DNA of 64,000 nucleotides, from the NCBI GenBank assembly GCA_965249675.1, contig OZ252250.1, positions 2,461,372-2,525,371 on the forward strand, read 5' to 3'. The notes below the pieces were generated by a model that had not been told where the DNA came from, made no database searches, and saw nothing but the letters and a program-made list of their open reading frames with translations. The DNA comes from Dehalococcoidia bacterium. GTDB lineage: Bacteria > Chloroflexota > Dehalococcoidia > UBA2979. Numbering within the stretch: position 1 is the first letter of the stretch; every line of letters begins with the position of its first letter. Position numbers and translations under genes: made by a program. This document shows positions 16,228 through 60,137 of this stretch, in pieces.

Positions 16228-18318
16228 ATGACCCAGACCGAACCCCGGGCGTCTACCGAGAGCGCGAACTTCCAGGTCGTGAGCGATTTCGAGATGACCG
16301 GCGACCAGCCCGGGGCAGTTGCGGAGATCGTCGAGGGGCTCGAACAGGGAGCGCGCGCGGTGACCCTCCTCGGCGCCACCGGCACCGGCAAGACCTTCAC
16401 AATGGCGAACGTGCTCGAGCGCTACCAGCGTCCGACGCTAGTGCTCGCGCCGAACCGGACCCTCGCCGCACAGCTGGTGAGCGAGCTCCGCGAATTCTTC
16501 CCACACAATGCCGTTGAGTACTTCGTCTCCTACTACGACTACTACCAGCCTGAGGCCTACATCCCCCGCTCCGACACCTACATTGCCAAGGATGCCGATA
16601 TCAACGACGAGATCGACAAGATGCGACACGCCTCGACGAAGGCGCTCTTCGAGCGGCGCGACGTGGTGATCGTGGCCTCGATCTCATGCATCTACGGCCT
16701 CGGTGAGCCGGGCGAGTACCAGGGGTTCGTGGTCAGGCTATTCCGTGGCAGGCACGTCAACCGCTCCTCGCTGATCCGCCAGCTGGTCGAGATGCAGTAC
16801 GCGCGCAACGATCTGAGCCTGCTCCGCGGCACGTTCCGCGTGCGTGGCGATTCGCTGACCATCTTTCCGGCCTACGAGGATCTGGCGGTGCGTGTTGATT
16901 TCTGGGGCGACGAGATCGAGCGCATCGCGACGCTCGATCCCCTGACCGGCGAGATCCTTGAGGAGACCGAAGAGTCGGCGATCTACCCGGCCAAGCACTT
17001 CGTCACCTCGAAGGAGCGACTTGAGGAGGCGATTGTGGCGATCGAGGCGGAACTCGGCGAGGAGGCTCCCCGTCTGCGTTCCGAGGGGAAGTTGCTCGAG
17101 GCGCAGCGGCTCGAGGAGCGCACACGCTATGACCTGGAGACGCTGCGCGAGGTCGGCTACTGCTCGGGGATTGAGAACTACTCGAGGCATCTCGCCGGTC
17201 GGGCCGCGGGATCGACGCCGTGGACGCTGCTCGACTACTTCCCCGACGACTGGCTGATCTTCATCGATGAATCGCACATCGCCATCCCGCAGGCAGGCGC
17301 AATGTACCGGGGCGACGCCTCGCGGAAGCAGACGCTCGTCGAGTACGGCTTCCGGCTGCCCTCGGCACTCGACAATCGGCCACTCACGTTCGAGGAGTTC
17401 GAGGAGCACATCAACCAGGTGGTCTTCCTCTCAGCGACTCCCGGTCCCTACGAACGAGCGGTCTCGACGCGGATCGTCGAGCAGGTGATCAGACCGACGG
17501 GCATCCTCGATCCGGAGGTTGACGTGCGGCCGACCCGTGGCCAGATCGACGACCTCCTCTCCGAGGTTCGCGCCCGCGCGGCCAGGGGCGAGCGGACGCT
17601 GGTAACCACGCTCACGAAGAAGATGTCCGAGGACCTCAACGATTTCCTGCAGGAGATGGGCGTCAAGTCGATGTACCTGCACTCTGAGATCGACACGCTG
17701 GGCAGGATCGACATCCTGCGCGACCTGCGGATCGGTGTCTACGACGTGATCGTCGGGATCAACCTCCTGCGTGAGGGGCTCGATCTCCCGGAGGTGTCGC
17801 TAGTCTGCATTCTTGATGCCGACAAGGAAGGTTACCTGCGATCTGGCGGTGCGCTGGTGCAGACCATGGGGCGGGCCGCCCGCCACCCGATGGGTCTGGT
17901 CATCATGTACGCGGACCGTATGACGGCGTCGATGCAGAACGCGATCGATGAGACCGAGCGTCGGCGCCAGGTGCAGCGTGCTCACAATGAGCAGCACCAG
18001 ATCACACCGCTGGGGATCTCCAAGGCAATTCGCGACATCACCGATACGATCCGCGAGGCGGAGCCCGAGGCGGCCTCCTACAGCCAGACCTCGGATCTGC
18101 CGCGAGACGAGTTGACGCGGCTGGTCAAGGAGCTCGAGCGTCAGATGAAGCAGGCGGCGAAGGAGCTCGACTTCGAGCGGGCCGCGCTCCTTCGTGACCA
18201 GGTAACTGAGCTGCGGCGGGAGCTCGTGGGTGGCGACTCGCCCGAGGCGCTGCGGTCCCTGGCGTCGAACACGCAACGTCCATCGCAGCGCCGGATCCGT
18301 GGCGGACGCAGCCGATAG
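16228..18318 (+). CDS. uvrB: excinuclease ABC subunit B
   Basis: Walker [10 protein letters not shown], helicase motifs, C-terminal UVR domain ([13 protein letters not shown]). Confidence 0.95.
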
Positions 18319-18332
18319 TCTCGCTCGTCTAT

Positions 18333-18354
18333 CGGCGACCTGCTCCCGTCGCCG
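18333..18354 (+). terminator. candidate uvrB terminator hairpin (CGGCGAC-loop-GTCGCCG), no U-tract
   Basis: Perfect 7-bp inverted repeat 15 nt after the uvrB stop. Confidence 0.3.
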
Positions 18355-18429
18355 ACGTGACTCGACACCGGGATGTCGAGCTGGAACGCGGGAGCTGTCT
18401 CCGGCATGTGAGTGGTCAGTTTCGCCTAG

Positions 18430-19623
18430 GGACGCTCTGAACTGGCCGCGAAATGCGGCCGATCAGGCTCTTCTGGGGCGTTCAATCGCTTGATGGTCAG
18501 GAATGCGGCCTGATCGGGGCTCGCGAGCGGCTCTGCGAGTGCCGTTTGGCGCTCGCTGCGGGATTCTGGGCGCACTGCGCCGTTGTTACGCAGCAAGTTG
18601 GCGCTCCGCTCGAACCATGTTGGCCAGCCCCAACAGCAACGCGAGCCGCTGCGTGTTCTTGAACAATCCGCGGTAGCGGACCTTGGCGTAGCCGAAGCGC
18701 ACCTTCACGATCTGGAACGGATGCTCGACCTTCGCACGCACGGAGGCCTTGCGCTTCTCTTCGAGCCACTCCTCACCCTCCCGGTCGAGCAGTCGCCGCT
18801 TGCCCGGTCGCATGGCAACCTGCCACTGCACCGCACGCTCGCGCTGCTCCAGACGTTTTCCGATGCCCTGGTAGCCCGCATCGCCACAGACCAGCCTTTC
18901 GTTGCCGTGCAGCAGGTCGGGCGCCGCGGTGATGTCGCTCACGTTCGCCGCCGTCGTGTGGAGGCTGTGCACGATGCCGCTCTCAGAGTCCACCCCGATG
19001 TGCAACTTCATCCCGAAGTACCACTGGTTTCCCTTGCGCGTCTGGTGCATCTCGGGATCCCGTGCTCTGGCCCGATTCCTGGTCGACGAGGGGGCGCTGA
19101 TGGTACTGGCATCAACCACAGTCCCCTGTCTCAACTGCAGTCCTTCCGCCTCCAGATGGCGGTTGATCTCCTCGAGCAATCCCCTCCCCAGCGCGGCCGC
19201 CTCCAGCCGGTGGCGGAAGTTGAGAATCGTCGTCTCATCGGGGATCGCGTCCGATAGCCTGAGCCCCACGAAGCGCTGCACGGTGAGATTCTCGTACAGC
19301 GCGTCCTCCATCGCCGGGTCGCTGAGGTTGTCGACCAGTTGCACGATGTGCACCCGCAGCATCAGTGACAGTGGGTAGGGCTGGCGCCCCCGTCCCGGCA
19401 TCGGGTAGTGGGGCGCAATGCGCTGCTCGAGTTGCCGCCACGGAACCAGCCGATCGAGTCGTTCCAGAAACCGCTCCCGGCGAGTCGTTCGCTTCTTCGC
19501 GTCGTAGTACAGCTCCGCGAACGTTGCCTCGCCCATCGCGCTCACCTCGTCATCTGGTCGAATGCCATACCATCCCGTGTAGGCATCTTAACAGATCATG
19601 CGGGTCTGTTCAGAGCGTCCCTA
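18430..19623 (-). mobile_element. IS5-family insertion sequence, copy 1 (1194 bp)
   Basis: Terminal inverted repeats GGACGCTCTGAAC at both ends; CTAG on one flank, CTAA on the other (shared with copy 2); near-identical to the copies at 45441 and 58921. Confidence 0.9.
18586..19545 (-). CDS. IS5-family DDE transposase (319 aa)
   Basis: Strong similarity to E. coli IS5 transposase (RPYPLSLMLRVHIVQ, DPEMHQTRKGNQWYFGMKLHIGVD, RAKVEHPFQIVKVRFGY). Confidence 0.95.
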   Translation of the reverse strand: MSAMGEATFAELYYDAKKRTTRRERFLERLDRLVPWRQLEQRIAPHYPMPGRGRQPYPLSLMLRVHIVQLVDNLSDPAMEDALYENLTVQRFVGLRLSDAIPDETTILNFRHRLEAAALGRGLLEEINRHLEAEGLQLRQGTVVDASTISAPSSTRNRARARDPEMHQTRKGNQWYFGMKLHIGVDSESGIVHSLHTTAANVSDITAAPDLLHGNERLVCGDAGYQGIGKRLEQRERAVQWQVAMRPGKRRLLDREGEEWLEEKRKASVRAKVEHPFQIVKVRFGYAKVRYRGLFKNTQRLALLLGLANMVRAERQLAA

Positions 19624-19627
19624 AGGA

Positions 19628-20785
19628 AGCTCTGAACTGGGAGCAGAATACGGCCGATCAGGCGGTTTCGGGACGTTCAGTCGCTTGATGGTCGGGGATG
19701 CGGCCTGATCGAGGCTCGCGAGAGGCTCTGCGAGTGCCGTTTGGCGCTCGATGCGGGATTCTGGGCGCACTGGGCCCTGGTTACGTAGCAAGTTGGCGCT
19801 CCGCTCGAACCACGTTGGCCAGTCCCAACAGCAACGCCAACCGCTGCGTGTTCTTGAACAGTCCGCGGTAGCGGACCTTGGCGTAGCCGAACCGCACCTT
19901 CACGATCTGGAACGGATGCTCGACCTTCGCGCGCAGCGAGGTCTTGCCCCGCTCCTCGAGCCACTCCTCACCCTCGGCGTCGAGCAATCGTCGCATCCCC
20001 GGTCGCATGGCAACCTGCCACTGCACCGCACGCTGGCGGTGCTCCAGACGTTTGCCGATGCCCTGGTACCCCGCATCGCCACAGACCAGCGTCTCGTCGC
20101 CGTGCAGCAGGTACGACACCTCGCTGATGTCGCTGACGTTCGCCGCCGTCGTGTGCAGGCTGTGCACGATGCCGCTCTCCGAGTCCACCCCGATGTGCAA
20201 CTTCATCCCGAAGTACCACTGGTTTTGGCGCGATTCCTCGTCGACGCCGGGGCGCTGATGATACTGGCATCGACGATCGTCCCGGACTGCGCTCGGAGCC
20301 GCAGCCCCTGTGCCTGCAGATGGCGGTTGATCTCTCCGAGCAAGCCCGTCCCCAGCGCGGACGCCTCCAGCCGATGGCGGAAGTTGAGAATCGTCGTCTC
20401 ATCGGGGATCGCGTCCGATAGCCTGAGCCCCACGAAGCGCTGCACGGTGAGATTCTCGTACAGCGCGTCCTCCATCGCCGGGTCGCTGAGGTTGTCGACC
20501 AGTTGCACGATGTGCACCCGCAGCATCAGTGAGAGCGGGTAGGGCTGGCGCCCCCGTCCCGGCATCGGGTAGTGGGGCGCAATGCGCTGCTCGAGTTGCC
20601 GCCACGGAACCAGCCGATCGAGTCGTTCCAGAAACCGCTCCCGGCGCGTCGTTCGCTTCTTCGCGTCGTAGTACAGCTCCGCGAACGTTGCCTCGCCCAT
20701 CGCGCTCACCTCGTCATCTGGTCGAATGCCATACCATCCCGTGTAGGCATCTTAACAGATCATGCGGGTCTGTTCAGAGCGTCCT
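19628..20785 (-). mobile_element. IS5-family insertion sequence, copy 2: diverged (~90% nt identity) with a 38-bp internal deletion
   Basis: Same terminal repeats (GGAAGCTCTGAAC / GGACGCTCTGAAC). Lies 4 bp (CTAA) from copy 1 in the same orientation; the other flank is the GUGCG 5' end of the group II intron. Confidence 0.85.
19781..20709 (-). pseudogene. IS5-family transposase, disrupted by internal deletion and frameshift
   Basis: N-terminal part (20203-20709) and C-terminal part (19781-20206) fall in different frames; compared with copy 1, 38 bp are deleted around STRNRA.../NQWYFGMK. Confidence 0.85.
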
Positions 20786-20786
20786 G

Positions 20787-21296
20787 TGCGTCCAGAAGTC
20801 AAAGGATGGTGACGAGATGACGTAACCAATCCGGAGACGTGCTCGTCGTTGCCAGCCGGTGGAAGTCCGGTCTGGGTAGCTGTCAGGAGGCCCCGTAGCA
20901 GGTCGGCGGCGCGGACGGGAAACGGTCCGTGTCGAAGCCCGATGTCGAAAGCCCATTTGGGGGAGCAACCAAGCGGTCCGCAGCATGAAGCGAAGCCTGC
21001 CGCACCGTGAATGACTCAAAGAGGAGCCGAGCCCGGGGGATCGGGGCGAAGACCATGGACGAGGTGAAGAGCCTCAAAGCGCAGCCTCAAGGAACCTCTC
21101 GGCGTAAGGGGCGTGGAACGTTTGGAAGGTAGCGACGGGAACTGGAGAAGCCCTCCCCGGCCCGGCACCCTGCGAAACGGTGTCGGAGCGAGGCGTCTTA
21201 TAACCGGTGATAAGCCGGGAAGTGGACAGCCAACCGGAGGGTGACGGAGGGGGCAGTAGTACCGCTGGAGCCGGACGGACAACAGAACTGCCGGTG
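20787..21296 (+). ncRNA. group II intron 5' RNA domains (putative domains I-III)
   Basis: Starts GUGCG, carries no long ORF, and is followed by the start of the intron-encoded protein. Confidence 0.45.
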
Positions 21297-21410
21297 ATGG
21301 GAAGGGCCCCTACTTTGTCTATGCGATGCGTTCAGGGAGGAATCGGGAGTGGCCACGGTCTACCAACCACCCGGAATAAGGTTCAAGAACTACAACGCAC
21401 GCTCTACCGG
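21297..21410 (+). pseudogene. group II intron RT/maturase, N-terminal fragment (...VQELQRTLYR) cut by IS3 insertion
   Basis: The reading frame continues at 25504 with AAKADPKRRFHALYDKVYRRDILERAWEQV, together reconstructing a canonical IEP N-terminus. Confidence 0.7.
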
Positions 21411-21440
21411 AAGCTGTCAACCTCTCCATGCCGGTCGAGG

Positions 21441-22466
21441 TCAGGGTGTTGTTGCAATGACGGGTTTGTTGATCCACGCCTCCTTCGGGGGTCTGGCGGC
21501 CCGCGGCGGTCCGTTGCGGAACCGCTCGGGCCAGACGCTGTAGGCGGCATCCAGGGTCTCCTGACGCGCCTGCACGGTCTCCAGGGCTTGCCCGCCGTGG
21601 AGCGTGGCGGGGTGCTGGTAGCCGACACCGGAGTGGTAGTGCTCGCGGTTGTACCAGTCGACAAACGGCGCCATCCAGCTCCGCACCTCCTCCAGCGAGT
21701 GGAAGCGGTCGGGGTAGTCGTGGCGGTACTTGACGGTCTTGAAGCCGGCCTCGGAGTAGGGGTTGTCGTTGCTCACGCGCGGGCGCGAGAGGCTGCGCGT
21801 GACAGCGAGGTCTTCGAGCAACTCCGCCAGGCTTGTCGACGTCATCTGGGCGCCACGGTCTGAGTGCAGCGTCAGTTGCTGCGGCGAGATCCCGTTGCGG
21901 TCGCAGGCGGTGCCCACCAGCGTCCTGGCAACCTCGGTCGACTCCGCCGTGTCGACCGTCCAGGCGACGATCTTGCGACTGAAGATGTCGATCATCACGT
22001 AGAGATAGAACCAGCTGCGGTGGTGAGGGCCGCGGAGCCGCGAGATGTCCCACGACCAGACCTCGTTCGGGCCGCTCGCCTGCACCTGGGGTGCATGGTG
22101 GGTCGTGCGTCGGTGACCGCGACGCCGTTCTCTGACCAGGCCGCGTTCCTCGAGGATGCGGTACATCTGGCGGATCGAGCAGACGTACGAGCCCTCGTCC
22201 AGCAGCTGATAGTAGACCTGGGCGGGCGCCTGGTCACGAAAGCGTGGTGAGCACAGCAGCTCGGCGATGTGATCGCGCAGCTGGTCGGGGATGCGTGACG
22301 GCTGCGGCTGGTGCTGCTCGCGCGGTTTCGCCTGTGACGGCCGCCTGTGTAGCCGGCCGGCGGCCGCCTGGCGGCGGCTGCGGTCGGTCCGCTCTGAGTA
22401 TCCGAAGGCTCGACAGGCGCGGGCACGGCCAACCCGCTGGGCCCATGCTTCCACAGCGGCGAGCAT
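21441..22466 (-). CDS. IS3-family transposase OrfB (integrase catalytic core)
   Basis: rve-type DDE domain (WSWDISRL, YLYVMIDIFSRKIV, HSDRGAQMTS, RPRVSNDNPYSEAGFKTVK). Confidence 0.9.
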   Translation of the reverse strand: MLAAVEAWAQRVGRARACRAFGYSERTDRSRRQAAAGRLHRRPSQAKPREQHQPQPSRIPDQLRDHIAELLCSPRFRDQAPAQVYYQLLDEGSYVCSIRQMYRILEERGLVRERRRGHRRTTHHAPQVQASGPNEVWSWDISRLRGPHHRSWFYLYVMIDIFSRKIVAWTVDTAESTEVARTLVGTACDRNGISPQQLTLHSDRGAQMTSTSLAELLEDLAVTRSLSRPRVSNDNPYSEAGFKTVKYRHDYPDRFHSLEEVRSWMAPFVDWYNREHYHSGVGYQHPATLHGGQALETVQARQETLDAAYSVWPERFRNGPPRAARPPKEAWINKPVIATTP

Positions 22467-22547
22467 CTGCGCCCGCCAGTTGGCGTATGCCTGGGAATGA
22501 CAACCCGTTCTGGCCCCACCTTGATCCTCTGAACTGGCCCCACCCCC

Positions 22548-23340
22548 GGGATGTGGTCAGCTGGTCGGAGCACCTCCCTTCGAGGCGGTGGTGACCCGCA
22601 GGCGATAGGACTCGCTGCCGGTCTCGATGATGTGGGCGCGGAACGTGAGCCGGTCGACGACCGCGGCGGCGAGGCGGGGGGTCGGCGAAGGTGCGGCCCC
22701 ACTCCGAGAACGGCGCGTTGGAGGCGACTGCCACCGAGGCCCGCTCCTCGCGCTCGGTGAGGACCTGGAAGAGCAGTTCGGCTCCGCGCGGGTCGAGGTG
22801 GACGTAGCCGAACTCGTCGAGGCAGAGCAGGTCGAGCCGGCCGTAGCGGGCGACCAGGCGTGAGAGCGTGCGCTCGTCGGCGGCTTCGGCCAGTTCGTTC
22901 ACGAGCTGTGCCGCCGTCGTGTAGCGCACCCGCAGCCCGCGCTGGCAGGCGGCCATGCCGAGCCCGATCAGCAGGTGCGACTTGCCGGTGCCGCTGTCTC
23001 CGAGCAGCACGACGGGCTGGCCCGAGGCGATCCACTCGCCGCGCTCGAGCGTGGCGAGCATGGTCGGGTCGACCGTGGGGGCCGCCGCCAGGTCGAAGTC
23101 GGCGAGGTGCTTGAGCCGGGGGAAACGGGCCTCGTGGATGCGGCGCTCACGGCGGCGCGCATCGCGGTCGTCGAGCTCGGATTGGAGCACCTCGGCGAGG
23201 TAGGCGAGATGGGTGAGCCGGTCGCGCAGCGCGGCCTCGGCGAGCGCGCCGGCCTGCTGACGGACCGTGGGGAGGTGCAGCGCACGGCTGGTCGCCTCGA
23301 CCTGAAGCGCCGCCGCCTGCTCGGTCACAGGTGTGCTCAT
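22548..23340 (-). pseudogene. IS21 IstB ATP-binding helper, frameshifted near C-terminus
   Basis: Walker A GDSGTGKSHLL and DEFGYV. After ...FSEWGRTFADP the frame is lost at a 6-G homopolymer (22676-22681); removing one base restores ...RLAAAVVDRLTFRAHIIETG... Confidence 0.8.
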
Positions 23341-24866
23341 CGCGTGCTCGCGGCGAGCAGCGCGTCGTAGCCGGCCAGGCTCGGCGCCGGGCGTTCGAAG
23401 CGCCTGAGCGCCGGCCGCTCCACAACGGCGGTCTCGCGGCGGCCGTCGGCGACGCGGCGCGCCTCGATGGCGATCAGCGCCGGGTCCACCGCGCCCAGCT
23501 GCTCCACCGCATCGAGTGCTGCGTGCACCGAGGCGGCGGGGAGGTGGCGGTGCAATAGCAGCACCTCGATGAGCGCCCGCGTCCCGGCGCCGTCACCGAG
23601 CTTGCGGCGGGCACGCTGCCAGAAGCGTTCGTGCGCGGCGGTGAAGCCAGCGCCTGAGCGCGCCTGCGCGAGCGCGATCGAGCCGGGCAGCGCCCCGGGC
23701 TTGCGGGACAGCACCTCGAGGAAGTGGTCCAGCACGAGGACCTCGGATCCCTTGTGCGCGCTGCGCTCGTGGCGGGCAACCACCCGGCCCGCGACGAGGG
23801 CGGTCACGGTCCCGCCGCCCAGGCGGACGTCCACCGTGCGGCCCGCGAACGCCGCGGGGACCGAGTAGCGCGAGCCACGCACGGAGATGCGCGCCTTGCG
23901 GTCGGCCTTCGCTTGCAGTGCGACCGTGGGGTCGAAGGGTTCGGCGGGGAGGGGCCGCAGCGCGGGCCGCTCTGCCTCCGCCGTCTGGCCGACGGTGGCG
24001 AGCCGGCCGGCGATGTGGCGGGCTCCGTCTGCGCGGTCGGCCGCCTCGAGCAGCGCGTTCAGCTCGGCCAGGCTCTCGCCGCGCGGGACCGGCACGAGGT
24101 GGCGCCGGCGGAAGCGCCCGACCTCACCCTCCACGCCCCCCTTCTCGTGCGCGCCCGCGATGCCGGGCTCGCAGAAGAAGCTGTCGAAGCCGTAGTGCGA
24201 GCGCAACGCGACGAAACGGTCGCTCTCGACGCGGTCGCGGCCGCGCAGCACGCGCGTGACGGCCGAGCTCAGATTGTCGTAGCGGATCCGCCGCGGCACC
24301 CCGCCGAGGCGCTCGAGGGCGAGCGTGTGGCCCTCGAGGAACGCCTCCTGGCCCTCGCCCGGGAAGCACACGTGGACCGCCCGCCCCGAGTGCGAGAGCC
24401 GCAGCACGAACATCGACAGCTCGGTCAGCACGCCGTCCAGCCAGACGCTGACCCCGCCGAAGTCGACCTCCGCCTCCTCGCCCGGCGGATGCAACTGGGG
24501 GATCGTCACGACTGAGCGACCGGACTCCAGCTCGCGGCGCACGCGGCCGACGTAGGCGCGCACCGTCGCCTCGGCGACCGTCGCGCCGTACTCATCGACG
24601 AGGCGCTCCCAGACCCGCCGCGCCGTGTGCCGCTGCTTGCGCGGCGCGCTCAGGTCGGCGACGAGCCACTCCCGGATGATCTCTACGTACGGACCGAGCT
24701 TCGGCGCCGCTCGAGACGCCTGCTTGCGTTGTGGCGGCAGCGCCGACTGCAGCGCCTGCCGTACCGTGCGCCGGTGCACGTGGTGGCGGCGCGCCAGCTC
24801 GCGTATGGGCAGCCCCTCCTCTCGCCATGCCCGTCGGATATCCTCGAACAACTCCACCCTCGACAC
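23337..24866 (-). CDS. IS21 IstA transposase
   Basis: N-terminal HTH (IRELARRHHVHRRTVRQAL), DDE core; 4-nt overlap with istB as is typical. Confidence 0.9.
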   Translation of the reverse strand: MSRVELFEDIRRAWREEGLPIRELARRHHVHRRTVRQALQSALPPQRKQASRAAPKLGPYVEIIREWLVADLSAPRKQRHTARRVWERLVDEYGATVAEATVRAYVGRVRRELESGRSVVTIPQLHPPGEEAEVDFGGVSVWLDGVLTELSMFVLRLSHSGRAVHVCFPGEGQEAFLEGHTLALERLGGVPRRIRYDNLSSAVTRVLRGRDRVESDRFVALRSHYGFDSFFCEPGIAGAHEKGGVEGEVGRFRRRHLVPVPRGESLAELNALLEAADRADGARHIAGRLATVGQTAEAERPALRPLPAEPFDPTVALQAKADRKARISVRGSRYSVPAAFAGRTVDVRLGGGTVTALVAGRVVARHERSAHKGSEVLVLDHFLEVLSRKPGALPGSIALAQARSGAGFTAAHERFWQRARRKLGDGAGTRALIEVLLLHRHLPAASVHAALDAVEQLGAVDPALIAIEARRVADGRRETAVVERPALRRFERPAPSLAGYDALLAASTR

Positions 24867-25025
24867 ACTCCTCTTCTTTCGCTCGGGGAGGTCTCAGTTG
24901 CCCGAGCGTAGCTGCTGGATGGGTCGGGGGTGGGGCCAGTTCAGAGGATCAAAACGGCTCCAGATGGGGCCAAATCAGAGTAGCGTTCCCATATGCCTGC
25001 GCTGGCCACTCGGCTCGGGTCGGCG

Positions 25026-25472
25026 CTACCCGTTCTGGCCACTCGGTCGCCGCTGCGACGCGCTCTTGCGGGCAAATCTTTGCAAGAGCGCCAAGGCTTT
25101 TCCCTGGGCCTCGATCAGCTCCTCTGCCGTCTCCAGCTGCTGCTCGGCAAGCATCGCCCGCTGCCGGTAGCGGTCGCGCTCAAGGGTCAGCCGGTTGGGC
25201 GCTCGTGGTCCCGGCGGCCGCTCGACGAGGGCACGGCGCGCCCCATCGTCACGCTGCTGGCGCCACCTGGTGATCAGAGAGGAGTACAGACCCTCGCGCC
25301 GACAGATGGCGCCGACTGCTCCCGGCTCTCCGCGGGCCTTTGCCTCGTCGATCTCCGCCAGGATGTCGAGCTTGTACTGCACTGGCCACGACCTGCGTGC
25401 TCGACGCACCTCAGTCTCTTCATCAACCACCATCGGTCTACGTCCACTTCTCCGCCCTCGTATCAATCGCAC
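25026..25472 (-). CDS. IS3-family transposase OrfA (HTH / leucine zipper)
   Basis: Identical to orfA of copy B except for a few substitutions; ends QRFARKSASQRRPSGQNG. Confidence 0.85.
   Translation of the reverse strand: MRLIRGRRSGRRPMVVDEETEVRRARRSWPVQYKLDILAEIDEAKARGEPGAVGAICRREGLYSSLITRWRQQRDDGARRALVERPPGPRAPNRLTLERDRYRQRAMLAEQQLETAEELIEAQGKALALLQRFARKSASQRRPSGQNG
25098..25104 (-). promoter_or_regulatory. -1 programmed ribosomal frameshift heptamer G GGA AAA of IS3 copy A
   Basis: X XXY YYZ heptamer in orfA frame; orfB lies in the -1 frame and stays open from the heptamer onward. Confidence 0.55.
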
Positions 25473-25503
25473 TACATCCGGCAGAGATGAGGTTGGCAGC
25501 TAG

Positions 25504-26773
25504 GGCCGGGCGGCCAAGGCCGACCCCAAGCGACGATTCCATGCGCTCTACGACAAGGTCTATCGCAGGGACATTCTGGAGCGCGCGTGGGAGCAGGTGC
25601 GTCGCAATCACGGCGCAGCCGGTATCGACGGCGTCACGCTCGCCGAGGTCGAGCGCTACGGCGTGGAGCGTCTGCTGGATGAGTTGGCCGCGGAACTGAA
25701 GGACGGAAGCTACAGGGTGCAGCCGAGCCGCCGAGTCTGGATACCCAAGCCCGGACGGACGGAGCAGCGCCCGCTCTCGATTCCCTCGGTCCGTGACCGC
25801 ATCGTGCAGGCGTCGCTGAAGCTGGTGACGGAGCCGGTCTTTGAGGCCGACTTCTTGCCATCGAGCTTCGGCTTCCGCCCGAAGCTCGCGGCCCATGACG
25901 CCCTGCAGGTCCTCATTGATGAGGCGTGGCGGGGCAGGCGGTGGGTAGTGGAAACGGACATCGTCTCGTGTTTCGAGTCGATATCTCACGACCGTTTGAT
26001 GGTGGCCGTCGAGGAAAGGATATGCGACCGCAATCTCCTGAAACTGGTACGGGCGATGCTGCGTGCCGGTGTGATGGAGTCGGGGGTCGTGCAGCACAGC
26101 GTGACGGGTACGCCGCAGGGCGGGGTGATGTCTCCGCTGCTGGCCAACGTCTACTTGCACCGTTTGGACCGGGAATGGGAGGCGAAGGGTACGGGCGTGC
26201 TGGTGCGCTACGCGGACGACCTCGTGGTGCTCTGCCGGGGAGGAAGCGGAGCAGGCCCTGGCCTTGCTGCGCGACCTGCTGGGTGAGCTCGGCTTGGAGC
26301 TCAAGGCGGAGAAGACGCGCATCGTGCGCCTGCGTGAGGGAGGCGAGGGACTGGAGTTCCTCGGCTTCGAGCACCGCTGGGTACGTGCGGAGCGCAACAA
26401 GAATATCCAGTTCCTCGCACGCTGGCCCTCACGGCGAGCGATGCAGCGGGCGCGAGACCGTATCCGTGAGCTCACGACGCGGTCGCGTCTATTGCTGAGT
26501 CCATCGACGGTCGTGGCGGACGTGAACCGCTACCTCCGTGGTTGGGTGAGCTACTTCCGCTACGGCAACTCGGCGCAGGCGTTCAATTCGCTTCGCTGGT
26601 ATGCCGGGTGGCGTCTCAAGGTGTGGTGGGGCAAACGGCTGGGATGGCGCCTCCGTCATCGCTACGGACCGTTTCCCCTTGCCCACCATCTGGGGCTCAT
26701 CCGGCTCGCTGGGCGCGTCGTTACGCCACGGCCGATGAGGCCGTGGCGGGGAGCGCCGCATGCCGCCCGGTGA
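25504..26773 (+). pseudogene. group II intron reverse transcriptase/maturase (IEP of intron 1), frameshifted
   Basis: RT domains (GIDGVT, IPKPG, SFGFRP, VRYADDLVVL) then maturase X domain (RYLRGWVSYFRY); an extra G in the run at 26237-26240 splits it into ORFs 25597-26286 and 26264-26773; no endonuclease domain. Confidence 0.8.
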
Positions 26774-27160
26774 AAGGCATCGGTGAGCCGTGTGCGGGGT
26801 GCGCCAAGCTAACTGGTGTTTGGACAGGGGGTGAAAGTCCGCCGCGGTGAAGGGGCTAGCCACCCCACACCGCTCCCCGAGCCGTGCGTGGGTCGCCGCG
26901 AGGCGGCACGCGAAGCGTCGGCAGGGGTACATGTGGGCAAGGCTATAGAGCGCCGAAAGTGGCATTGTTCGGAGTGCCGAGGCTTTCTCGCAGGCCGAAG
27001 GCAACAGCGGCGGCGGCGTTTTGGCGAGCCGTCGCCTTCTCCGCGGCGTCTAAGAACCATTGCACGCATGCACGTCCATCACCGGGACTTGGGAGAGCTG
27101 CGCGCCGCCCCGACGAGTCGTACGTCGGGGCCGCGTCGGGAAGGGAGGCAACCGTAGCTG

Positions 27161-28658
27161 ATGATGAACGACGCGCAGCAGTCTGATGGGGCCGTAGGAG
27201 CTATGAAGGTGACGAACAAAGGGGCGCGAGTCCCGGCGGAGTCGCTGGAGCAAAGGGCCCCAGCCGAGAGGAATCGGCGACGCTCCGGCACAGTCCGGTC
27301 TCAGAATCGGGGAGCTGTGTCACCCGGAGCGGAGCGGATACGGCAGTTCGCAGAGAAGAAGCCGGGAGAGAAACTCATCGCGCTCCTGCACCACATCACG
27401 TCGGAAACACTCAAGGAGGCGTACCACGCTTTGAAGCGTGACGCGGCTCCGGGCGTGGACGGGGTGACGTGGCGGGAATACGGGGACGGACTGGACGAGC
27501 GTTTGCTCGACCTGCACGGCCGCGTGCACCGGGGAGCGTATCGGGCGAAGCCTGTGCGGCGGGTAGAGATACCAAAGCCGGACGGGGGCGTACGACCGCT
27601 CGGTATCGTCTCGCTGGAGGACGAGATCGTTCAGCGGGCAGTGGTGGACAATCTTCTGAACCCGATTTACGAATCGGAGTTCTACGGCTTCTCGTACGGC
27701 TTCAGGCCGGGGCGCTCGGCGCATGACGCGCTGGACGCACTGGCCTACGCGGTCGAACGGCGCAAGGTCAGCTGGATTGTCGAGGTGGACATCCGGGGGT
27801 TCTTCGACAGCATCGACCGGGAACGGCTGATGTCGTTTCTGGAGATGCGCATCGGGGACCAGCGGGTGTTGCGCCTGATACGAAAGTGGCTGAACGCCGG
27901 AGTCATGGACGGGGGACTGGAAGTCGATTTCGTGCGGGGGACGCCGCAGGGAGCGCCGATATCGCCGCTGCTTGCGAACGTGTACCTGCACAACGTGCTC
28001 GATGACTGGTTCGCGCGCGAGTGGCGACCGCGGGAGGCCCGGGGCGAGGCGTACATCGTGCGGTATGCCGATGACTTTGTCCTGGGGTTTCAGCACCGCA
28101 GCGATGCGGTGCGTTTCATGGAGGCGCTTCGGGAGCGATTTGCGGCCTTCGGACTGGAGCTGCACCCGGAGAAGACGCGTCTTGTGGAGTTCGGCCGGTT
28201 CGCGATGGCGAACCGGCGTAAGCGCGGGGAGAGTCGGCCGGAGACGTTCGATTTTCTCGGGCTGACGCACTACTGCCGGACGACGAGCAAGGGGCGTTTC
28301 GGGCTGGGACGTAAGCCCTCAGCGAAGCGTATGCATCGCACGCTCAAGGCCATACGGGCCGAGACGCGGCGGCGCATGCACGACAACCCAGTGAGTGGCG
28401 CAGTGGCTTGGGCGTGTGCTGCGTGGGTGGCTTGGCTACTACGCGGTGCCGACGAGTTATCGGTTCCTCCACCGCTTTGTGCAGACCTTGCTCCGCATGT
28501 GGTGGCAGGTCTTGCGGCGGCGGTCGCAACGGGATCGTTTCTCGTGGGAGCGCCTCGACGCCCTGTGCCGGGACTACTGGCCTCGAATCTCCATCCTCCA
28601 CCCGTGGCCGACGACGCGGTTCGCCGTCAGGACTCAAGGCAGGAGCCGGATGCATTAA
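27161..28658 (+). pseudogene. second group II intron-type reverse transcriptase/maturase (RT2), frameshifted
   Basis: GVDGVTWREY, VRRVEIPKPDGGVRPLGI, YGFRPGRSAHDAL, IVRYADDFVLGF, then X domain LRGWLGYYAVP in a different frame (ORF 28395-28658) because of a 4-bp tandem duplication AGTGAGTG at 28390-28397. Confidence 0.8.
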
Positions 28659-28854
28659 CGTGCACGTCCGGATCCGTGCGGGGGGCGGCCAGCAATGGCC
28701 GTCCCTACCGCGAAAGAACCGCACGTCTGGTTCGAGGTGGCAGGGGCTGAAGACCGACGTTGCTACGGACGGGGAGTTGTGCACCACCGGGAAACCGGCT
28801 TGGAATCGACGCGCCCCGGCCCTACGGCACGCACCGCGCCAGCCCCTGACCCTA

Positions 28855-31296
28855 CTAAAGCGGTGGGCGGTCGCTTCGAGCCGCGCTCGTGTCTGTCTCC
28901 CCGGACTCTTCTTCATCCCGCGCCAGCAGCACCTCGCGGGAATTCGTGCCGTCTGGCGGCGCGACGATGCCGCGATCTTCCAGCTGATCCATCGTGCGCG
29001 CCGCCCGCGGATAACCGATGTGGAGCTTGCGTTGGAGCATCGAGGTGGAGAGCGTCTCCTGCGCTCGGGCGAGCTCGATAGCCTGGGCGAGCAGCGGGTC
29101 ATCTTCGCCGGAGATCTCGCGCTCCTGCCGGTCCTCAATCTCGCGCGCGGCCTCATGCAGCAGGTCGTCGAACGTCTCGGGGCGCAGTTCACTAAACCGA
29201 TCGGCGGTCCAAAATGACACCAGTCTCTGAATCTCCTGGTCGCTCACGAACACACCCTGGACGCGCAACGGCTTCTGCTCTTCCGGCGGCACATAGAGCA
29301 TGTCGCCGCGGCCGAGCAACTTCTCGGCGCCGCCCTGGTCCAGGACCGTGCGCGAGTCGACCGATGACGCCACGGCGAAGGCGATGCGGGTCGGGAAGTT
29401 CGCCTTGATCAGTCCGGTGATGACGTCGACCGACGGCCGCTGTGTTGCGACGACCAGGTGGATCCCCGTCGCTCTTGCCAGCTGTGCCAGACGCACGAGC
29501 TGCGTCTCGACCTGGAACGGAGCGGCGATCATGAGGTCGGCGAGCTCATCGATGACCACGACCCAGTAGGGGATCCGGGTCCCTGCCGGTCGGTCGTTAT
29601 AGGCCGCAACGTTGCGAACGCCGGCTGCGGCAAACTTGCGGTAGCGAGACTCCATCTCATTGATCACCGCCTGCAGCGTTCCGACCACTTCGTCCATCTC
29701 GACGACGATTCGTGAGAAGGCAAGGTGCGGAATCGCCGCGAAGTCGGCCAGCTCGACCCGCTTCGGGTCGATCATCACGAGCCGTAGCTGCTCTGGGGAG
29801 AGGTGCATCAGAAGTCCGCTGATGATCGCGTTCAGGCAGACCGACTTGCCCGCACCCGTGGTGCCGGCGATGAGGACGTGTGGCATCTTGGCGAGGTCAG
29901 CGATCACCGGCTCGCCTGATACGCCCTGGCCGAGTGCAATGGGGAGAGCCATCTTTGTCAGCGCCTCGCGGTACTGCGATGTCTGCATGACCTCACGCAG
30001 GGTCACCGGGACGGTGTCCCGGTTCGGGACCTCAATACCAACCATCGGCTTACCGGGCACGGGGGCCTCAATCCGCAGGGCCGGGGCCGCGAGAGCCAGC
30101 GCCAGGTCGTTATTGAGAGCGGTGATGCGGCTGACCCGGATTCGCGTACGCGCGGTCTCAACCTCACGCCGCACCGGTTGGCCATCGTCGTCGAGTATCG
30201 GACGCCCGGAGGCGTCCTGCTCGGTGACCAGTCGCGACTTCACATCCCACCCGGGCTCGACGCCGAACTGCGTGATGGTCGGACCTTCGTTGACCTGAAC
30301 GACCCGAGCATCGACACCGAAGGAGGCGAGCGTTTCAGTGATCAGTTCCGCCCGCCGCTGGTTGTCGACGGTGCGGGAGGGACCGGCGGGGGCCTCCTCA
30401 AGCACCGTGATCGGCGGGAGTGGCCATCCGTCCTCGGAGTGGCGGAGCTGATCGACCGGCGTCTCCATGTCCATGGGCATCTGCTTCGCCGGCCGATCTG
30501 GCGCATCCGGCGCGCTGCTGTCCGCGGCAAGGCCAGCCGCCGGCGGCGCTGATTGGTCGTCGGTGACAACAACAGGAGGCACCAGCTCTGGCATGGGCGG
30601 CCCTGCGATCTCTTCGATCGGGTCGGCAACAGGTGGCCCGGCAGCGGGGGAGGGGCGGCCCAGCCGCACCGAGGCCACCTGAGCGGAGACCCGGGTAATG
30701 GCGCGCCACGCGTGGCGGTCGAGGCGCGCTCTCCAGAGTTCGGTCAACCCCACTACGCCTGTGGCGAGCGTGCCTCGACCGAGTGCCGAGGCGGTGCGTG
30801 GCCATACCAGGGCGAAGCCACTCAAGCCCAGCAGAACCCAGACGGCGGTCCCGTCCGGCCAGACCGTCAGCGAGCGGCCGAGGTCCCCACCGACCGAGTG
30901 AATGGAAAGCGGGACCTCCCCGATCTCGCGATCAGGATGCCAGTGGCCGAGCGCCCCGGCCAGGAATCCGGCGAGCCCCACAGCGCCCACGAGCTGCCGC
31001 CGGTGCGCCAAGAGTCGGTTGATCCGCCGCGTTGCGATCAGGAGCCCCAGAACGCCTACTACCAGCACCAGCGTGAAGGCGTGGACACCAAGCAATCGCA
31101 CGAGCTCGTCGGCTGCATCAGAGAGGATGCCCGTGAGTGACCAGAGGAACGGGACGGTTGCCGCGGCCAGCACGACGAGCGCCGTCCCGATGACCTCGGG
31201 GCGGATCAAGAGTCTCAGGGACGCCAGGACCCGATTGCTCGACCCGTTCGCGCCCGGGCGAGACGGGGCACGGCGGGCGCCGCCACTGTGGGCCAT
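28855..31296 (-). CDS. ftsK: DNA translocase FtsK/SpoIIIE
   Basis: N-terminal TM helices, Pro-rich linker, motor domain with Walker A AGTTGAGKSVCLN, C-terminal gamma winged helix. Confidence 0.9.
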   Translation of the reverse strand: MAHSGGARRAPSRPGANGSSNRVLASLRLLIRPEVIGTALVVLAAATVPFLWSLTGILSDAADELVRLLGVHAFTLVLVVGVLGLLIATRRINRLLAHRRQLVGAVGLAGFLAGALGHWHPDREIGEVPLSIHSVGGDLGRSLTVWPDGTAVWVLLGLSGFALVWPRTASALGRGTLATGVVGLTELWRARLDRHAWRAITRVSAQVASVRLGRPSPAAGPPVADPIEEIAGPPMPELVPPVVVTDDQSAPPAAGLAADSSAPDAPDRPAKQMPMDMETPVDQLRHSEDGWPLPPITVLEEAPAGPSRTVDNQRRAELITETLASFGVDARVVQVNEGPTITQFGVEPGWDVKSRLVTEQDASGRPILDDDGQPVRREVETARTRIRVSRITALNNDLALALAAPALRIEAPVPGKPMVGIEVPNRDTVPVTLREVMQTSQYREALTKMALPIALGQGVSGEPVIADLAKMPHVLIAGTTGAGKSVCLNAIISGLLMHLSPEQLRLVMIDPKRVELADFAAIPHLAFSRIVVEMDEVVGTLQAVINEMESRYRKFAAAGVRNVAAYNDRPAGTRIPYWVVVIDELADLMIAAPFQVETQLVRLAQLARATGIHLVVATQRPSVDVITGLIKANFPTRIAFAVASSVDSRTVLDQGGAEKLLGRGDMLYVPPEEQKPLRVQGVFVSDQEIQRLVSFWTADRFSELRPETFDDLLHEAAREIEDRQEREISGEDDPLLAQAIELARAQETLSTSMLQRKLHIGYPRAARTMDQLEDRGIVAPPDGTNSREVLLARDEEESGETDTSAARSDRPPL

Positions 31297-41975: not shown

Positions 41976-43175
41976 TTGATGGATAGCACATTCAAGATCC
42001 TTGTCGTTGATGACGAGCCAGATCTCGAGCCCCTCATGTTGCAACGGATGCGGCGTCAGATCCGCTCCGGACAGTACAGTTTCGTCTTCGCTCATAACGG
42101 TGCCGAGGCTCTCGATATGTTGCAACAAGACGACGAGATCGACATGGTACTATCCGACATCAACATGCCGATCATGGATGGTCTCACGCTCCTGCAGCAG
42201 ATCCCGAAGATTGATCCGAACATCCGCTCGGTCATCATCTCCGCGTACGGCGACATGAAGAATATCCGCACCGCGATGAACCGTGGCGCTTTCGACTTTG
42301 TCACCAAGCCGCTTGACTTCGACGATCTGAGGATCACCATCGAGCGAACGGCCATTCATCTGGTCGAGTGGCGGGATGCGCTCTCCTCCCGCGATCAACT
42401 GGTCATGCTGCAGAACGAGCTGGATGTTGCGCGCAACATCCAGCAATCCATCCTCCCCACCCGGTTCCCCAGGGGTGCCGACTATCACTCGTATGCGAGC
42501 ATGCAACCGGCGCTGCAGGTCGGCGGAGACTTCTACGACGTGCTGCGGCTTGAAGGCGGCCTGATCGGCCTGACGATCGCCGATGTGTCTGGCAAGGGAG
42601 TGCCGGCGGCACTGTTCATGATGTCAAGTCGCATGCTCCTCAAGGGCGCTGCGATCGGACATCACGCCCCGGGCGAAGTCTTGCGGGAAGTGAATTCACT
42701 CCTTGCTGAAGACAACGAGTCGATGATGTTCGTGACGCTCCTCTATGCGATCTACAACCCGGCCACCGGGGCCGTCGTGTACACAAATGGTGGCCACAAC
42801 TCACCAGTCGTCAGACATAACGACGGCAGCTCCACGCTGCTCCCGCTGACGGGTGGCGTGGCGCTCGGAGTCACCGACGACTTTACTTACGAGCAGGACA
42901 CGGTCGTGTTGTCACCGGGGGAGACCCTGGTGCTGTACACCGATGGCGTGACGGAGGCGATGAACGCAGACGGTGAGGAGTTCGGGATGGAGCGGCTGTA
43001 CGACGTCCTGGCTACCGTCCGGTGCGACCAGCCGTCGGACATCAACGATGCGATCTTCGCTGGTGTACGGGAGTTTGCGGGCGATACGGCACAGTCCGAC
43101 GACATCACCCTAGCTGCCAACCTCATCTCTGCCGAATATAGTGCGATTGATACGAGGGCGGAGAAGTGGACGTAG
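41976..43175 (+). CDS. response-regulator receiver + PP2C (RsbU/SpoIIE-type) phosphatase; 3' end replaced by IS3 sequence
   Basis: REC domain (ILVVDDEP...DMVLSDINMP) and PP2C motifs (GGDFYDV, TIADVSGKG, YTDGVTEA, DDITL). The last 17 codons (AANLISAEYSAIDTRAEKWT) read into the IS3 left end, which begins at 43108. Confidence 0.85.
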   Translation: MMDSTFKILVVDDEPDLEPLMLQRMRRQIRSGQYSFVFAHNGAEALDMLQQDDEIDMVLSDINMPIMDGLTLLQQIPKIDPNIRSVIISAYGDMKNIRTAMNRGAFDFVTKPLDFDDLRITIERTAIHLVEWRDALSSRDQLVMLQNELDVARNIQQSILPTRFPRGADYHSYASMQPALQVGGDFYDVLRLEGGLIGLTIADVSGKGVPAALFMMSSRMLLKGAAIGHHAPGEVLREVNSLLAEDNESMMFVTLLYAIYNPATGAVVYTNGGHNSPVVRHNDGSSTLLPLTGGVALGVTDDFTYEQDTVVLSPGETLVLYTDGVTEAMNADGEEFGMERLYDVLATVRCDQPSDINDAIFAGVREFAGDTAQSDDITLAANLISAEYSAIDTRAEKWT

Positions 43176-43587
43176 AACGATGGTGGTTGATGAAGAGACT
43201 GAGGTGCGTCGAGCACGCAGGTCGTGGCCAGTGCAGTACAAGCTCGACATCCTGGCTGAGATCGACGAGGCAAAGGCCCGCGGAGAGCCGGGAGCAGTCG
43301 GCGCCATCTGTCGGCGCGAGGGTCTGTACTCGTCTCTGATCACCAGGTGGCGCCAGCAGCGTGACGATGGGGCGCGCCGTGCCCTCGTCGAGCGGCCGCC
43401 GGGACCACGAGCGCCCAACCGGCTGACCCTTGAGCGCGACCGCTACCGGCAGCAGGCGATGCTTGCCGAGCAACAGCTGAAGACGGCAGAGGAGTTGATT
43501 GAGACACAGGGAAAAGCCTTGGCGCTCTTGCAAAGATTTGCTCGCAAGAGCGCGTCGCAGCGGCGACCGAGCAGCCAGAACGGGTAG
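43141..43587 (+). CDS. IS3-family transposase OrfA
   Basis: HTH + leucine zipper; 148 aa. Confidence 0.85.
   Translation: MRLIRGRRSGRRTMVVDEETEVRRARRSWPVQYKLDILAEIDEAKARGEPGAVGAICRREGLYSSLITRWRQQRDDGARRALVERPPGPRAPNRLTLERDRYRQQAMLAEQQLKTAEELIETQGKALALLQRFARKSASQRRPSSQNG
43509..43515 (+). promoter_or_regulatory. -1 programmed ribosomal frameshift heptamer G GGA AAA (orfA to orfB)
   Basis: X XXY YYZ heptamer 72 nt before the orfA stop; the -1 frame is open from here through orfB (…TGKSLGALAKICSQERVAAATEQPERVAPTRAEWPAQAYANWRAQMLAAV…). Confidence 0.55.
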
Positions 43588-43640
43588 CGCCGACCCGAGC
43601 TGAGTGGCCAGCACAGGCATACGCCAACTGGCGGGCGCAG

Positions 43641-44666: not shown

Positions 44667-44733
44667 CCTCGACCGGCATGGAGAGGTTGACAGCTTCCGA
44701 TCACCTGCGTAACGCTGACCCGGAGCTAGATGC

Positions 44734-60110: not shown

Positions 60111-60137
60111 CTAGCGGTGCGAGAGACCCCTCCGCCG

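Follow-up and report, generated by a model that had tools for sequence, protein, structure and literature searches.

The interval between uvrB and ftsK

The window analysed here is a 64,000-nucleotide stretch of contig OZ252250.1 from a Dehalococcoidia bacterium (GC content 66.5%), in which 10.5 kb of mostly mobile DNA separates the convergent genes uvrB and ftsK, and where a group II intron lies within domain V of another. Native DNA accounts for only ~110 bp of the gap (18319-18428), and the remainder is made up of six mobile elements, dead or dying, stacked within each other (Table 1). Along the forward strand the order is TA, insertion sequence (IS) IS5 copy 1, TA, IS5 copy 2, intron 1 and TA, with an IS3-family element, an IS21-family element and a second intron lying inside intron 1. 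An earlier note, made from the letters of the window alone, had claimed that nearly all of the DNA between the two genes is mobile; the observation of nested mobile DNA is confirmed, and the elements lie essentially where the note had placed them.

Table 1. Features of the uvrB-ftsK interval and the IS3 reference copy, in window coordinates (IEP, intron-encoded protein; RT, reverse transcriptase; X, maturase domain; ORF, open reading frame)
Feature	Position	Strand	Details
uvrB, left boundary gene	16228..18318	+	Pfam UvrB_inter, UvrB, Helicase_C, UVR; stop at 18318
IS5-family copy 1, intact	18429..19621	-	transposase ORF 18586-19545 (-); TA at 18427-28 and 19622-23
IS5-family copy 2, decayed	19624..20785	-	termini AGGAAGC...GCGTCCT; transposase broken
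Group II intron 1 (outer)	20786..28855	+	2055 nt healed; pieces 20786-21410, 25510-26798, 28715-28855
IEP1 (RT + maturase X), pseudogene	21321..26773	+	Pfam RVT_1 and GIIM in two frames
IS3-family copy A	21411..25505	-	1589 bp own sequence; orfB 21441-22466 (-), orfA part in 25000-25505
IS21-family element	22494..24991	-	2498 bp; istA 23337-24866, istB from 23340 downward
Group II intron 2 (inner)	26799..28714	+	1916 nt; within apical loop of intron 1 domain V (GAGCCGUGUGCGGG / AGAACCGCACGUCUGGUUC)
IEP2 (RT + X), pseudogene	27161..28657	+	natural stop TAA 28655-57 within intron 2 domain V
ftsK, right boundary gene	28855..31296	-	Pfam FtsK_SpoIIE, FtsK_alpha, FtsK_gamma
IS3-family copy B, uninterrupted reference	43110..44699	+	outside pile-up

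The convergent ftsK/uvrB pair is kept in 33 loci from Dehalococcoidia/Chloroflexota metagenome-assembled genomes, found in a protein-guided scan of 185,579 species genomes (best FtsK identities 66-73%), and the intergenic gap in these loci ranges from 90 bp to 2.4 kb. In the window ftsK is full length against its homologues (aligned to residue 813 in L006; loci compared with the window are cited by L numbers throughout), and its TAG stop is composed of T28857 and A28856, which are the TA duplication of IS5 copy 2, together with the complement of intron 1's final base, C28855. Since the original IS5 target, C-TA-A, is the complement of the ftsK stop, a stop codon would have been retained after insertion, reading TAG before the insertions, TAA after IS5 and TAG again now by way of C28855. 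For the host genome the region looks like neutral junk with no evident function, and the locus illustrates how a convergent gene terminus can take up 10 kb of selfish DNA harmlessly, with the ftsK stop kept throughout.

An intron within domain V of another intron

Domain V is the catalytic centre of group II introns, and its apical loop makes a tertiary contact. The outer intron of the window, intron 1, begins with GUGCG at 20786, directly abutting the last base of the IS5 tandem at 20785, as the earlier note had described. Its domain I-IV RNA matches RF02003 at 20853-20988 (93.6 bits, gathering score 49), and over 560 nt it shows 81-85% column identity to its relatives. The 3′ end, ...GACCCUAC, lies at 28855, as in relatives, and the bulged A of the branch point precedes that end by 7 nt; in domain VI GGCAGGGGCUG pairs with CAGCCCCUG, followed by the bulged A and CC, and a compensatory G-C to A-U change is seen against L003.

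Domain V of intron 1 is present in two halves (26785-26798 and 28715-28733), and an RF00029 search of the unhealed window gave no match at this domain. After in-silico removal of 26799-28714 the joined halves, GAGCCGUGUGCGGGAGAACCGCACGUCUGGUUC, are invariant across the junction in a four-sequence alignment with L001-L003, the healed domain V folds as the canonical hairpin, and domains V-VI together fold in the expected manner. Introns from Streptomyces and Rhodococcus plasmids likewise align to intron 1 up to 26798 and again from 28715, and in these domain V reads GGTGAGCCGTGTGCGGGAGAACCGCACGCACGG.

The two halves are separated by a complete group II intron (intron 2) that occupies the apical loop between G26798 and A28715, with junctions GGTGAGCCGTGTGCGGG / GTGCGCCAAGC... 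at 26798/26799 and ...CCCTACCGCGAA / AGAACCGCACGTCTGGTTCGAGGTGGC... at 28714/28715. Its ends, 5′ GUGCGCC and 3′ ...CCCUACCGCGAA, agree with those of relatives (GTGCGCC... and ...CCCTACCGCGA(N)), to which it aligns end to end (relatives' ...CCCUACCGCGA(A/U/C)). Its RNA matches RF02005 at 26834-27058 (162.4 bits), and its domains V-VI at 28641-28714 score 32.7 bits against RF00029, under the gathering score of 40. The two intron RNAs are of different types, Rfam D1D4-4 and D1D4-6. A GTGCG at 26792 was considered as the 5′ end of intron 2 and dropped, as this motif belongs by alignment to domain V of intron 1 and the true end is 26799. The window therefore holds a twintron, in which removal of a complete inner intron restores an outer domain V identical to that of relatives. 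The earlier note had seen a second RT gene following the first; that gene is in fact part of the complete intron at 26799-28714, inside intron 1, which extends to 28855. Because intron 2 lies inside intron 1, the outer intron contains two separate nests, and intron in intron becomes the fourth nesting relation of the pile-up.

Both introns carry an IEP gene, and both genes are broken. The IEP1 frame is open as far as ...QRTLY at 21407 and continues from 25510, IS3 having split it after ...TLY; compared with the intact 444-aa copy in L103 it has also lost 5 bp after 26237, and the loss of 1 bp at 21346 has removed the GTG start. Repaired, IEP1 scores 390 bits against TIGR04416 (cut-off 300) and is 97% identical to intact 444-aa proteins and to P0121. 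IEP2 has a 2-bp deletion after 28394, as judged against an intact copy (copy Y of L089, below), and a tblastn search with the LtrA proteins of relatives returned two high-scoring segment pairs in different frames; the repaired protein scores 353.7 bits against TIGR04416 and is 94% identical to the 499-aa P0001. With both IEPs frameshifted, any splicing in the window is predicted to need help in trans. The earlier note had held that each insertion inactivates its host. This stands for the splits by IS3 and IS21, and it leaves out the further lesions (the 5-bp deletion in IEP1, the 2-bp deletion in IEP2 and a 1-bp insertion in istB); nor does it extend to intron 2, which in domain V is in principle removable by splicing and so is not inactivating in the sense that an IS is.

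L103 carries a copy of intron 1 (97-98% identity) whose 444-aa IEP is intact and in which the IS3 site and the domain V loop are both empty (uninterrupted domain V, GCGGG/AGAACC). Domain V is likewise empty in a further copy, in L101.

Recurrence of the domain V junction and probable homing of the intron 2 lineage

The first exon-binding site (EBS1) of intron 2 is CUCGCA, at 26987-26992, and it pairs with UGCGGG of domain V through five Watson-Crick pairs and one G-U. A 6-nt EBS1 is found at intron positions 180-189 in 10 introns of this type, each complementary to its own 5′ exon, with EBS1/exon pairs that include TCAGAA/TTCTGA, CCGTCC/GGACGG, TGACGT/ACGTCA and CCAGTA/TACTGG. Relatives were found by protein search on long metagenomic contigs, and the DNA junctions were then compared. 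The domain V junction of the window recurs at the same nucleotide in L089 (twice), L098, L099, L100, L101 and L102, from five ENA assemblies. Junctions of this type can be written RAGCCGNNUGCGRG/GUGCGCC and CCGCGAA/AGAACCGC, and an unoccupied domain V loop of a D1D4-4-type intron GCGRG-AGAACC; the expected target of the live copy Y of L089 would be GGAUGCGAG/AGAACC.

One of these loci, L089, is a live nested array of three layers. An intron 2-type element, copy X, lies in a domain V fragment, an intron 1-type element lies in X, and a second intron 2-type element, copy Y, lies in the domain V loop of the latter. The outer-type intron sits in the ORF of copy X at CTCGGGT/TTACGC (window-equivalent 28261/2) and encodes an intact 444-aa IEP, and copy Y encodes an intact 499-aa IEP. 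Intron 2 of the window is 95.5% identical to both X and Y. The two copies are 99.7% identical to each other and occupy two different domain V hairpins, and the one complete host intron is just 78% identical to intron 1 of the window. At the X site the target is UGCGAG, to which EBS1 is perfectly complementary by Watson-Crick pairing.

It could be argued that domain V received the inner intron in a single chance event of ectopic retrotransposition at a loose EBS1 match. The single G-U in the window pairing would fit such an event, as would the many unrelated sites at which proteobacterial and metagenomic relatives (50-87% identity) are found. However, the junction is the same to the nucleotide in seven more places, near-identical copies fill two diverged host hairpins of a single locus, and the complementarity to UGCGAG is perfect; we therefore regard a single chance landing as very unlikely, and the recurrence largely refutes it. 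The same lineage occupies the same position in diverged domain V hairpins of other genomes, and the domain V loop is very probably its normal homing site and not an accidental landing place.

A second alternative would have the twintron arrive ready-made, with intron 1 inserting already occupied or the whole block being copied as DNA, such that intron 2 never homed at this locus. A large loop need not prevent the domain V helix from forming, just as domain IV accommodates an ORF, and hosts ~94% identical to intron 1 carry the inner intron in L098, L099 and L101 at different genomic sites and with different 3′ exons. Mobility of a composite twintron has also been suggested as a possibility (PMC2882425). 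Against this, a 1.9-kb insert in the catalytic domain V would be expected to disable reverse splicing, domain V is empty in close copies of intron 1 in L103 and L101, and the nesting order in L089 requires separate events. On this evidence we consider a ready-made twintron improbable, and separate homing of intron 2 remains the preferred reading.

Further possibilities for target choice were also considered. Targeting of DNA hairpins as such (domain V, a CRISPR-like repeat) is unsupported, since the varied sites are explained by EBS1 pairing; proteobacterial relatives of intron 2 lie at unrelated sites. The plasmid collection held no close relatives, only introns at 64-73% identity, and a scan of viral contigs for the domain V/intron junction returned five chance matches, none of them introns.

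The L089 nest (1-21500 of the locus, ENA ERZ25071132, on a 6.98-Mb contig) lies beside genes of type IV secretion (TrbL, a T4SS pilin, PrgI and TraG) and an integrase gene, and from this gene content it is probably located on an integrative conjugative element.

The IS3 and IS21 nest

The second nest in intron 1 is the one that the earlier note had read correctly: IS3 copy A splits the maturase frame, and an IS21-family element splits IS3 copy A. Excision of 21411-25509 re-joins IEP1 in frame (LQRTLY/RAAKADPKRRF, giving LQRTLYRAAKADPKRRF), gapless against homologues (LQHALYRAAKADPGRRF), and the re-joined sequence is the same as the empty IS3 site, the uninterrupted CTCTACCGGGCGGCC, that L103 carries in another assembly. 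IS3 copy A is flanked by a 4-bp target duplication, CCGG (21407-10 and 25506-09), and when the IS21 is excised its two pieces, 21408-22493 and 24992-25505, align to copy B (43108-44699) at 99.6% and 96.7% identity, respectively, with ends that match between the copies. The transposase is recognised by NF033516 (192 bits, cut-off 160) and Pfam rve (7e-24), orfA and orfB are in a -1 frame relation (in copy B orfA spans 43141-43587 and the orfB frame is open from 43503), and the repeats TGYCAACCTC are subterminal, 4-7 nt inside the ends. The target duplication of copy B can be read either as 4 bp (TGAT) with three extra bases or as 6 bp. The 6-bp reading (ATCACC) was dropped, as it would leave copy A without a duplication and with an extra Gly codon, and the empty site in L103 gives CCGG.

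The IS21 element is bounded by an 8-bp direct repeat, TATGCCTG, at 22486-93 and 24992-99, an octamer that occurs once in IS3 copy B; alternative bounds of 22492-24991, equally compatible with the sequence, would give TG..CA ends and a 6-bp TATGCC duplication. Its insertion site is within the orfAB overlap region of IS3, equivalent to 43614-21 in copy B. The element shows the features of its family, namely istA and istB (IstA, NF033546, 248 bits; IstB, NF038214, 210 bits), TG..CA ends, multiple terminal repeats and a duplication of 6-8 bp. The ends read TGGGAA.../...TTCCCA with repeated CTGGCCCCACC motifs, and a 28-bp internal inverted repeat is present. The istB gene is frameshifted by an extra G at 22676, removal of which restores a 260-aa IstB resembling the copy in L098. 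The relative order of intron, then IS3, then IS21 proposed in the earlier note holds, each junction having its own target duplication and the empty site being preserved in L103.

Nests of this kind are familiar among the IS families of ISfinder and NCBIfam, and this one resembles them in its transposases, terminal repeats (subterminal in the IS3), target duplications and the relative chronology that nesting provides. The only departure lies in IS3 copy B (in 41976-44705), which cuts a response-regulator/SpoIIE (PP2C) gene ~8 codons before its stop and ends in three extra terminal bases, CGG, identical to the flank of copy A (CCGG). Copy B may have descended from copy A, with donor flank bases carried along. 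Furthermore, 12 of the 21 differences between the two copies fall within the 160 bp adjoining the IS21 (25000-25159), nearly all of them transitions, and this cluster may represent a conversion tract or local mutagenesis.

An IS21 97-98% identical to that of the window lies in intron 2-type copies of L098 (1483-3984), L099 and L100, at the window-equivalent site 27389-27396, in three assemblies. The same IS and the same introns are therefore co-circulating in related genomes.

The IS5 tandem and the target of intron 1

Four copies of a 1193-bp IS5 element were found in the window by self-BLAST, and copy 1 is 99.6-99.75% identical to those at ~45441-46632 and ~58920-60111. The self-comparison also revealed a tandem repeat with an 18-bp period (63627-63793) and two perfect palindromes, of 32 bp (55030-55061) and 26 bp (42419-42444). 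The family assignment follows from a DDE_Tnp_1 transposase, 14-bp inverted repeats (GGGACGCTCTGAAC / GTTCAGAGCGTCCC in copy 1) and (C)TA(R) flanks on all four copies, the ends of which compare as RGGACGCTCTGAAC...GTTCAGAGCGTCCY, TA-flanked within a C-TA-R target. The 319-aa transposase of copy 1 is intact (NF033581, 321.8 bits, cut-off 140), and judging by its sequence this copy appears to be the sole functional-looking element of the pile-up. Copy 2 aligns to copy 1 as two blocks at 90-94% identity, with a 37-bp gap, and only the N-terminal DUF772 part of its transposase is left as an ORF (20203-20709). The TA at 19622-23 is common to the two copies. For copy 2 the duplication consists of this TA and the TA at 28856-57, and as the right-hand TA lies beyond intron 1, IS5 copy 2 is older than intron 1, a step that the chronology of the earlier note had missed. 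T20785 was also considered as a C, since mutated, belonging to a CTA duplication, and as a surplus base; both readings were dropped, as RGGACGC...GCGTCCY ends plus TA make T20785 the last base of copy 2.

EBS1 of intron 1 is GGGA, at 21037-21040. It occupies loop positions 3-6 of a GCCC-N9-GGGC hairpin that covary with exon positions -4 to -1 in four introns of this type, the pairs of EBS1 and its exon partner, intron-binding site 1 (IBS1), being GGGA/UCCU, AUCC/GGGU, AGUG/CACU and GAAA/UUUC. A candidate EBS1, GGACG at ~21072, was dropped, as it shows no covariation in L089. In the window GGGA pairs with the IS5 terminus UCCU, and perfect pairing is expected with the canonical end UCCC; the pattern for intron 1 at IS5 termini would be the IS5 end followed by GUGCGUCC. 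In four other close copies of intron 1 the 3′ exons start with TAG or TAA (TAR), and in L103 (5499-5503) a convergent gene for a PHP_C domain protein takes its TAG stop from the terminal C of the intron and the TA, as at ftsK. These junctions suggest that intron 1 homes to IS5-end/TA junctions, a proposal to which we give about even odds.

Coincidence is the obvious competing explanation, with intron 1 inserting in the manner of class C (IIC) introns downstream of whatever DNA hairpin offers a 4-nt match, as the IS5 inverted repeat happens to do. A short IBS1 (3-4 nt) is a trait of this class, together with the lack of an EBS2 and insertion after terminator or attC stem-loops, and the EBS1 of intron 1 is just 4 nt; in each of the four examples of the intron 1 type a small hairpin, which may be there by chance, is present 9-14 nt upstream of the insertion point; elsewhere the type occupies an intron ORF (L089) or follows a terminator-like hairpin (L002); and no intron is found at the remaining three IS5 copies of the window. 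On the other hand, the insertion falls precisely between the terminal base of the IS and its TA duplication, the canonical IS5 end is a perfect match for GGGA, the four close copies have TAG/TAA 3′ exons like every IS5 right junction, and IS5-like fragments are present on the 5′ side in L101 and L103. Coincidence remains a serious contender, which we place a little short of an even chance.

The IS5 copies at ~45441-46632 and ~58920-60111 have TA-flanked ends in which candidate intron 1 junctions (GCGTCCC/TAG) are present and empty.

Proposed order of events

We think it very probable that the pile-up arose as a chain of insertions, each using a target made or carried by the preceding element, and including guided, recurrent homing by intron 2. 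Boundaries, duplications, empty sites, EBS1-IBS1 covariation, recurrence and lesions can all be read directly, and the following sequence of steps is proposed on this basis. An IS5-family element would first have inserted into the TA of the ftsK stop codon (plus strand C-TA-A), preserving the stop, and a second IS5 copy would have entered the regenerated left TA, producing the tandem; the order of the two copies is the part of this pair of steps that we infer. Intron 1 would then have reverse-spliced exactly where the terminal base of IS5 copy 2 met the right TA, guided by its 4-nt EBS1, with an IS5 end as its presumed preferred target. Into the maturase ORF of intron 1 would have come IS3, with its CCGG duplication, followed by IS21 in the IS3 transposase frame. 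Separately, either before or after IS3, intron 2 would have reverse-spliced into the domain V loop of intron 1 through CUCGCA/UGCGGG. Elsewhere, as L089 indicates, the outer type would home into the ORF of the inner type, creating self-renewing nested arrays.

Neither IEP has room for an endonuclease domain, TIGR04416 covering all but ~44 C-terminal residues. For endonuclease-minus introns a reliance of insertion on replication-fork priming is established (PMC4424553), and the insertion of introns 1 and 2, presumably by reverse splicing at replication forks, would by analogy have depended on it. Judged by its reading frames, the pile-up in the window is a fossil, as neither maturase is intact and istB, the transposase frame of IS3 and IS5 copy 2 are likewise broken.

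A further explanation would be misassembly, the pile-up being an artefact of collapsed or mis-joined repeats. The window does contain near-identical repeats (IS5 four times, IS3 twice) of the sort that classically cause such errors. However, each junction has a matching target duplication and heals to a sequence that is intact elsewhere, the same kinds of junction occur in independent assemblies, and the decayed copies carry private mutations that set them apart from intact relatives, and we give an artefact almost no credence.

Several observations nevertheless weigh against the chain of insertions, or narrow its scope. No strain-level empty uvrB/ftsK site was found among the scanned genomes, the closest of which are at 56-73% FtsK identity. 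Relatives of intron 2 at 80-87% protein identity lie at other targets, such as IS21 terminal repeats, and domain V homing is therefore limited to a narrow sub-lineage. The twintron hosts in L098, L099, L101 and L102 are ~94% identical to that of the window and could in part reflect one ancestral event, followed by DNA-level or composite spread. Finally, an intact 5′ junction for the intron 1 subfamily is available only from the window, such that homing to IS5 ends would be represented by one junction together with the TAR 3′ exons of four copies.

Comparison with known nested introns

Nested IS elements and twintrons are known biology, and the unusual part of this locus is the recurrent homing site. 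Bacterial twintrons are rare and mostly intergenic (PMC4424553, PMC4649490). Nested group II arrays have been described in Methanosarcina acetivorans (Dai & Zimmerly 2003, as outlined in PMC4424553 and PMC2882425). The Methanosarcina arrays resemble ours in site-specific homing into other introns, in nests that lie outside host genes and offer a perpetual homing site, and in homing into intron ORFs, as the outer type does in the inner-type ORF of L089. They differ in being archaeal and in targeting an ORF in domain IV, whereas the host here is bacterial (Chloroflexota-like), one partner sits in the domain V loop and two RNA types are involved.

Twintrons and IS-targeted introns are also known from Thermosynechococcus elongatus (Mohr et al. 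2010, PMC2882425), where introns have evolved to home to conserved sites within other introns or an IS (PMC2882425, PMC4424553). There too the inner copies are near-identical and the outer ones diverged, as with X and Y in L089, and the ORF of one outer intron is likewise cut by an IS (PMC2882425). However, the Thermosynechococcus inner introns are ORF-less and lie between the first two ATGs of the outer ORF, a position not essential for catalysis (PMC2882425), whereas the inner intron described here encodes its own protein and splits domain V. The bacterial twintron T.e.I7/I8 of Trichodesmium erythraeum likewise combines two distantly related introns, each with an IEP ORF; its inner intron lies in domain I, its host is a conserved protein gene and its sequential splicing has been shown (PMC4649490), while the twintron of the window is known from sequence alone and both of its IEPs are broken.

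The chloroplast twintrons of Euglena (Copertino & Hallick 1991, as cited in PMC4649490) provide a parallel for the disruption itself. There the inner intron breaks a part of the outer one that is needed for splicing, so that sequential splicing is required, as would be the case here; they differ in being organellar, degenerate and ORF-less, and in lying in essential genes where selection for splicing maintains them, whereas our twintron is intergenic and dead in the window. The internal intron of Euglena psbF is reportedly located in domain V.

The features that set the present system apart are recurrent homing to the domain V loop, reciprocal nesting of two intron types and a bacterial, Chloroflexota-like host. 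A literature search found no description of such a system, which is weak evidence of absence. An intron lineage that homes reproducibly to the most conserved, catalytically essential hairpin of another intron, and of which live copies are extant, offers a natural system for studying whether a 1.9-kb insert in domain V can be tolerated by a group II ribozyme or has to be removed for it to work, in what way retroelements exploit one another and how nested arrays grow, questions approached so far mainly in Methanosarcina, Thermosynechococcus and organelles. Moreover, the target of intron 2 is short, defined and testable, with a possible use in retargeting.

More tentatively, the inner and outer introns may be partners in a dedicated hyperparasitic relationship within Chloroflexota-like bacteria, in which the domain V loop is the sole homing site of intron 2 and the outer intron homes to IS5 ends and to the inner ORF; we consider this possible, and on balance doubtful. 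Were it true, the outer ribozyme would be active only after the inner intron had spliced out, making the inner intron a switch on outer splicing and mobility, and each intron would perpetually make targets for the other.

Related introns at other sites

A sister sub-lineage of intron 2, with a 5′ end of GAGCG and 80-87% IEP identity, occupies IS21 terminal repeats at CTGAACTGG/CCCCACC in L077/L078, L091 and L092. The same motif is present in the IS21 element of the window (~22532-22548), where it is empty.

In L088 (4340-6280) a 72%-identical D1D4-6-type intron lies in the domain V loop of an intron 2-type copy, after GCATT, and is itself cut by an IS5-like element at a TAA in its own domain V loop, so that domain V loops are the focus of a pile-up in this locus too.

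In two further loci, L075 (~1455-1476, a Pandoraea plasmid) and L083 (~710-730, a Ralstonia megaplasmid, upstream of imuA), introns lie directly after LexA-box-like palindromes (TACTGT-N8-ACAGT), which suggests that SOS boxes may be a homing site for the proteobacterial branch of the inner intron's relatives.

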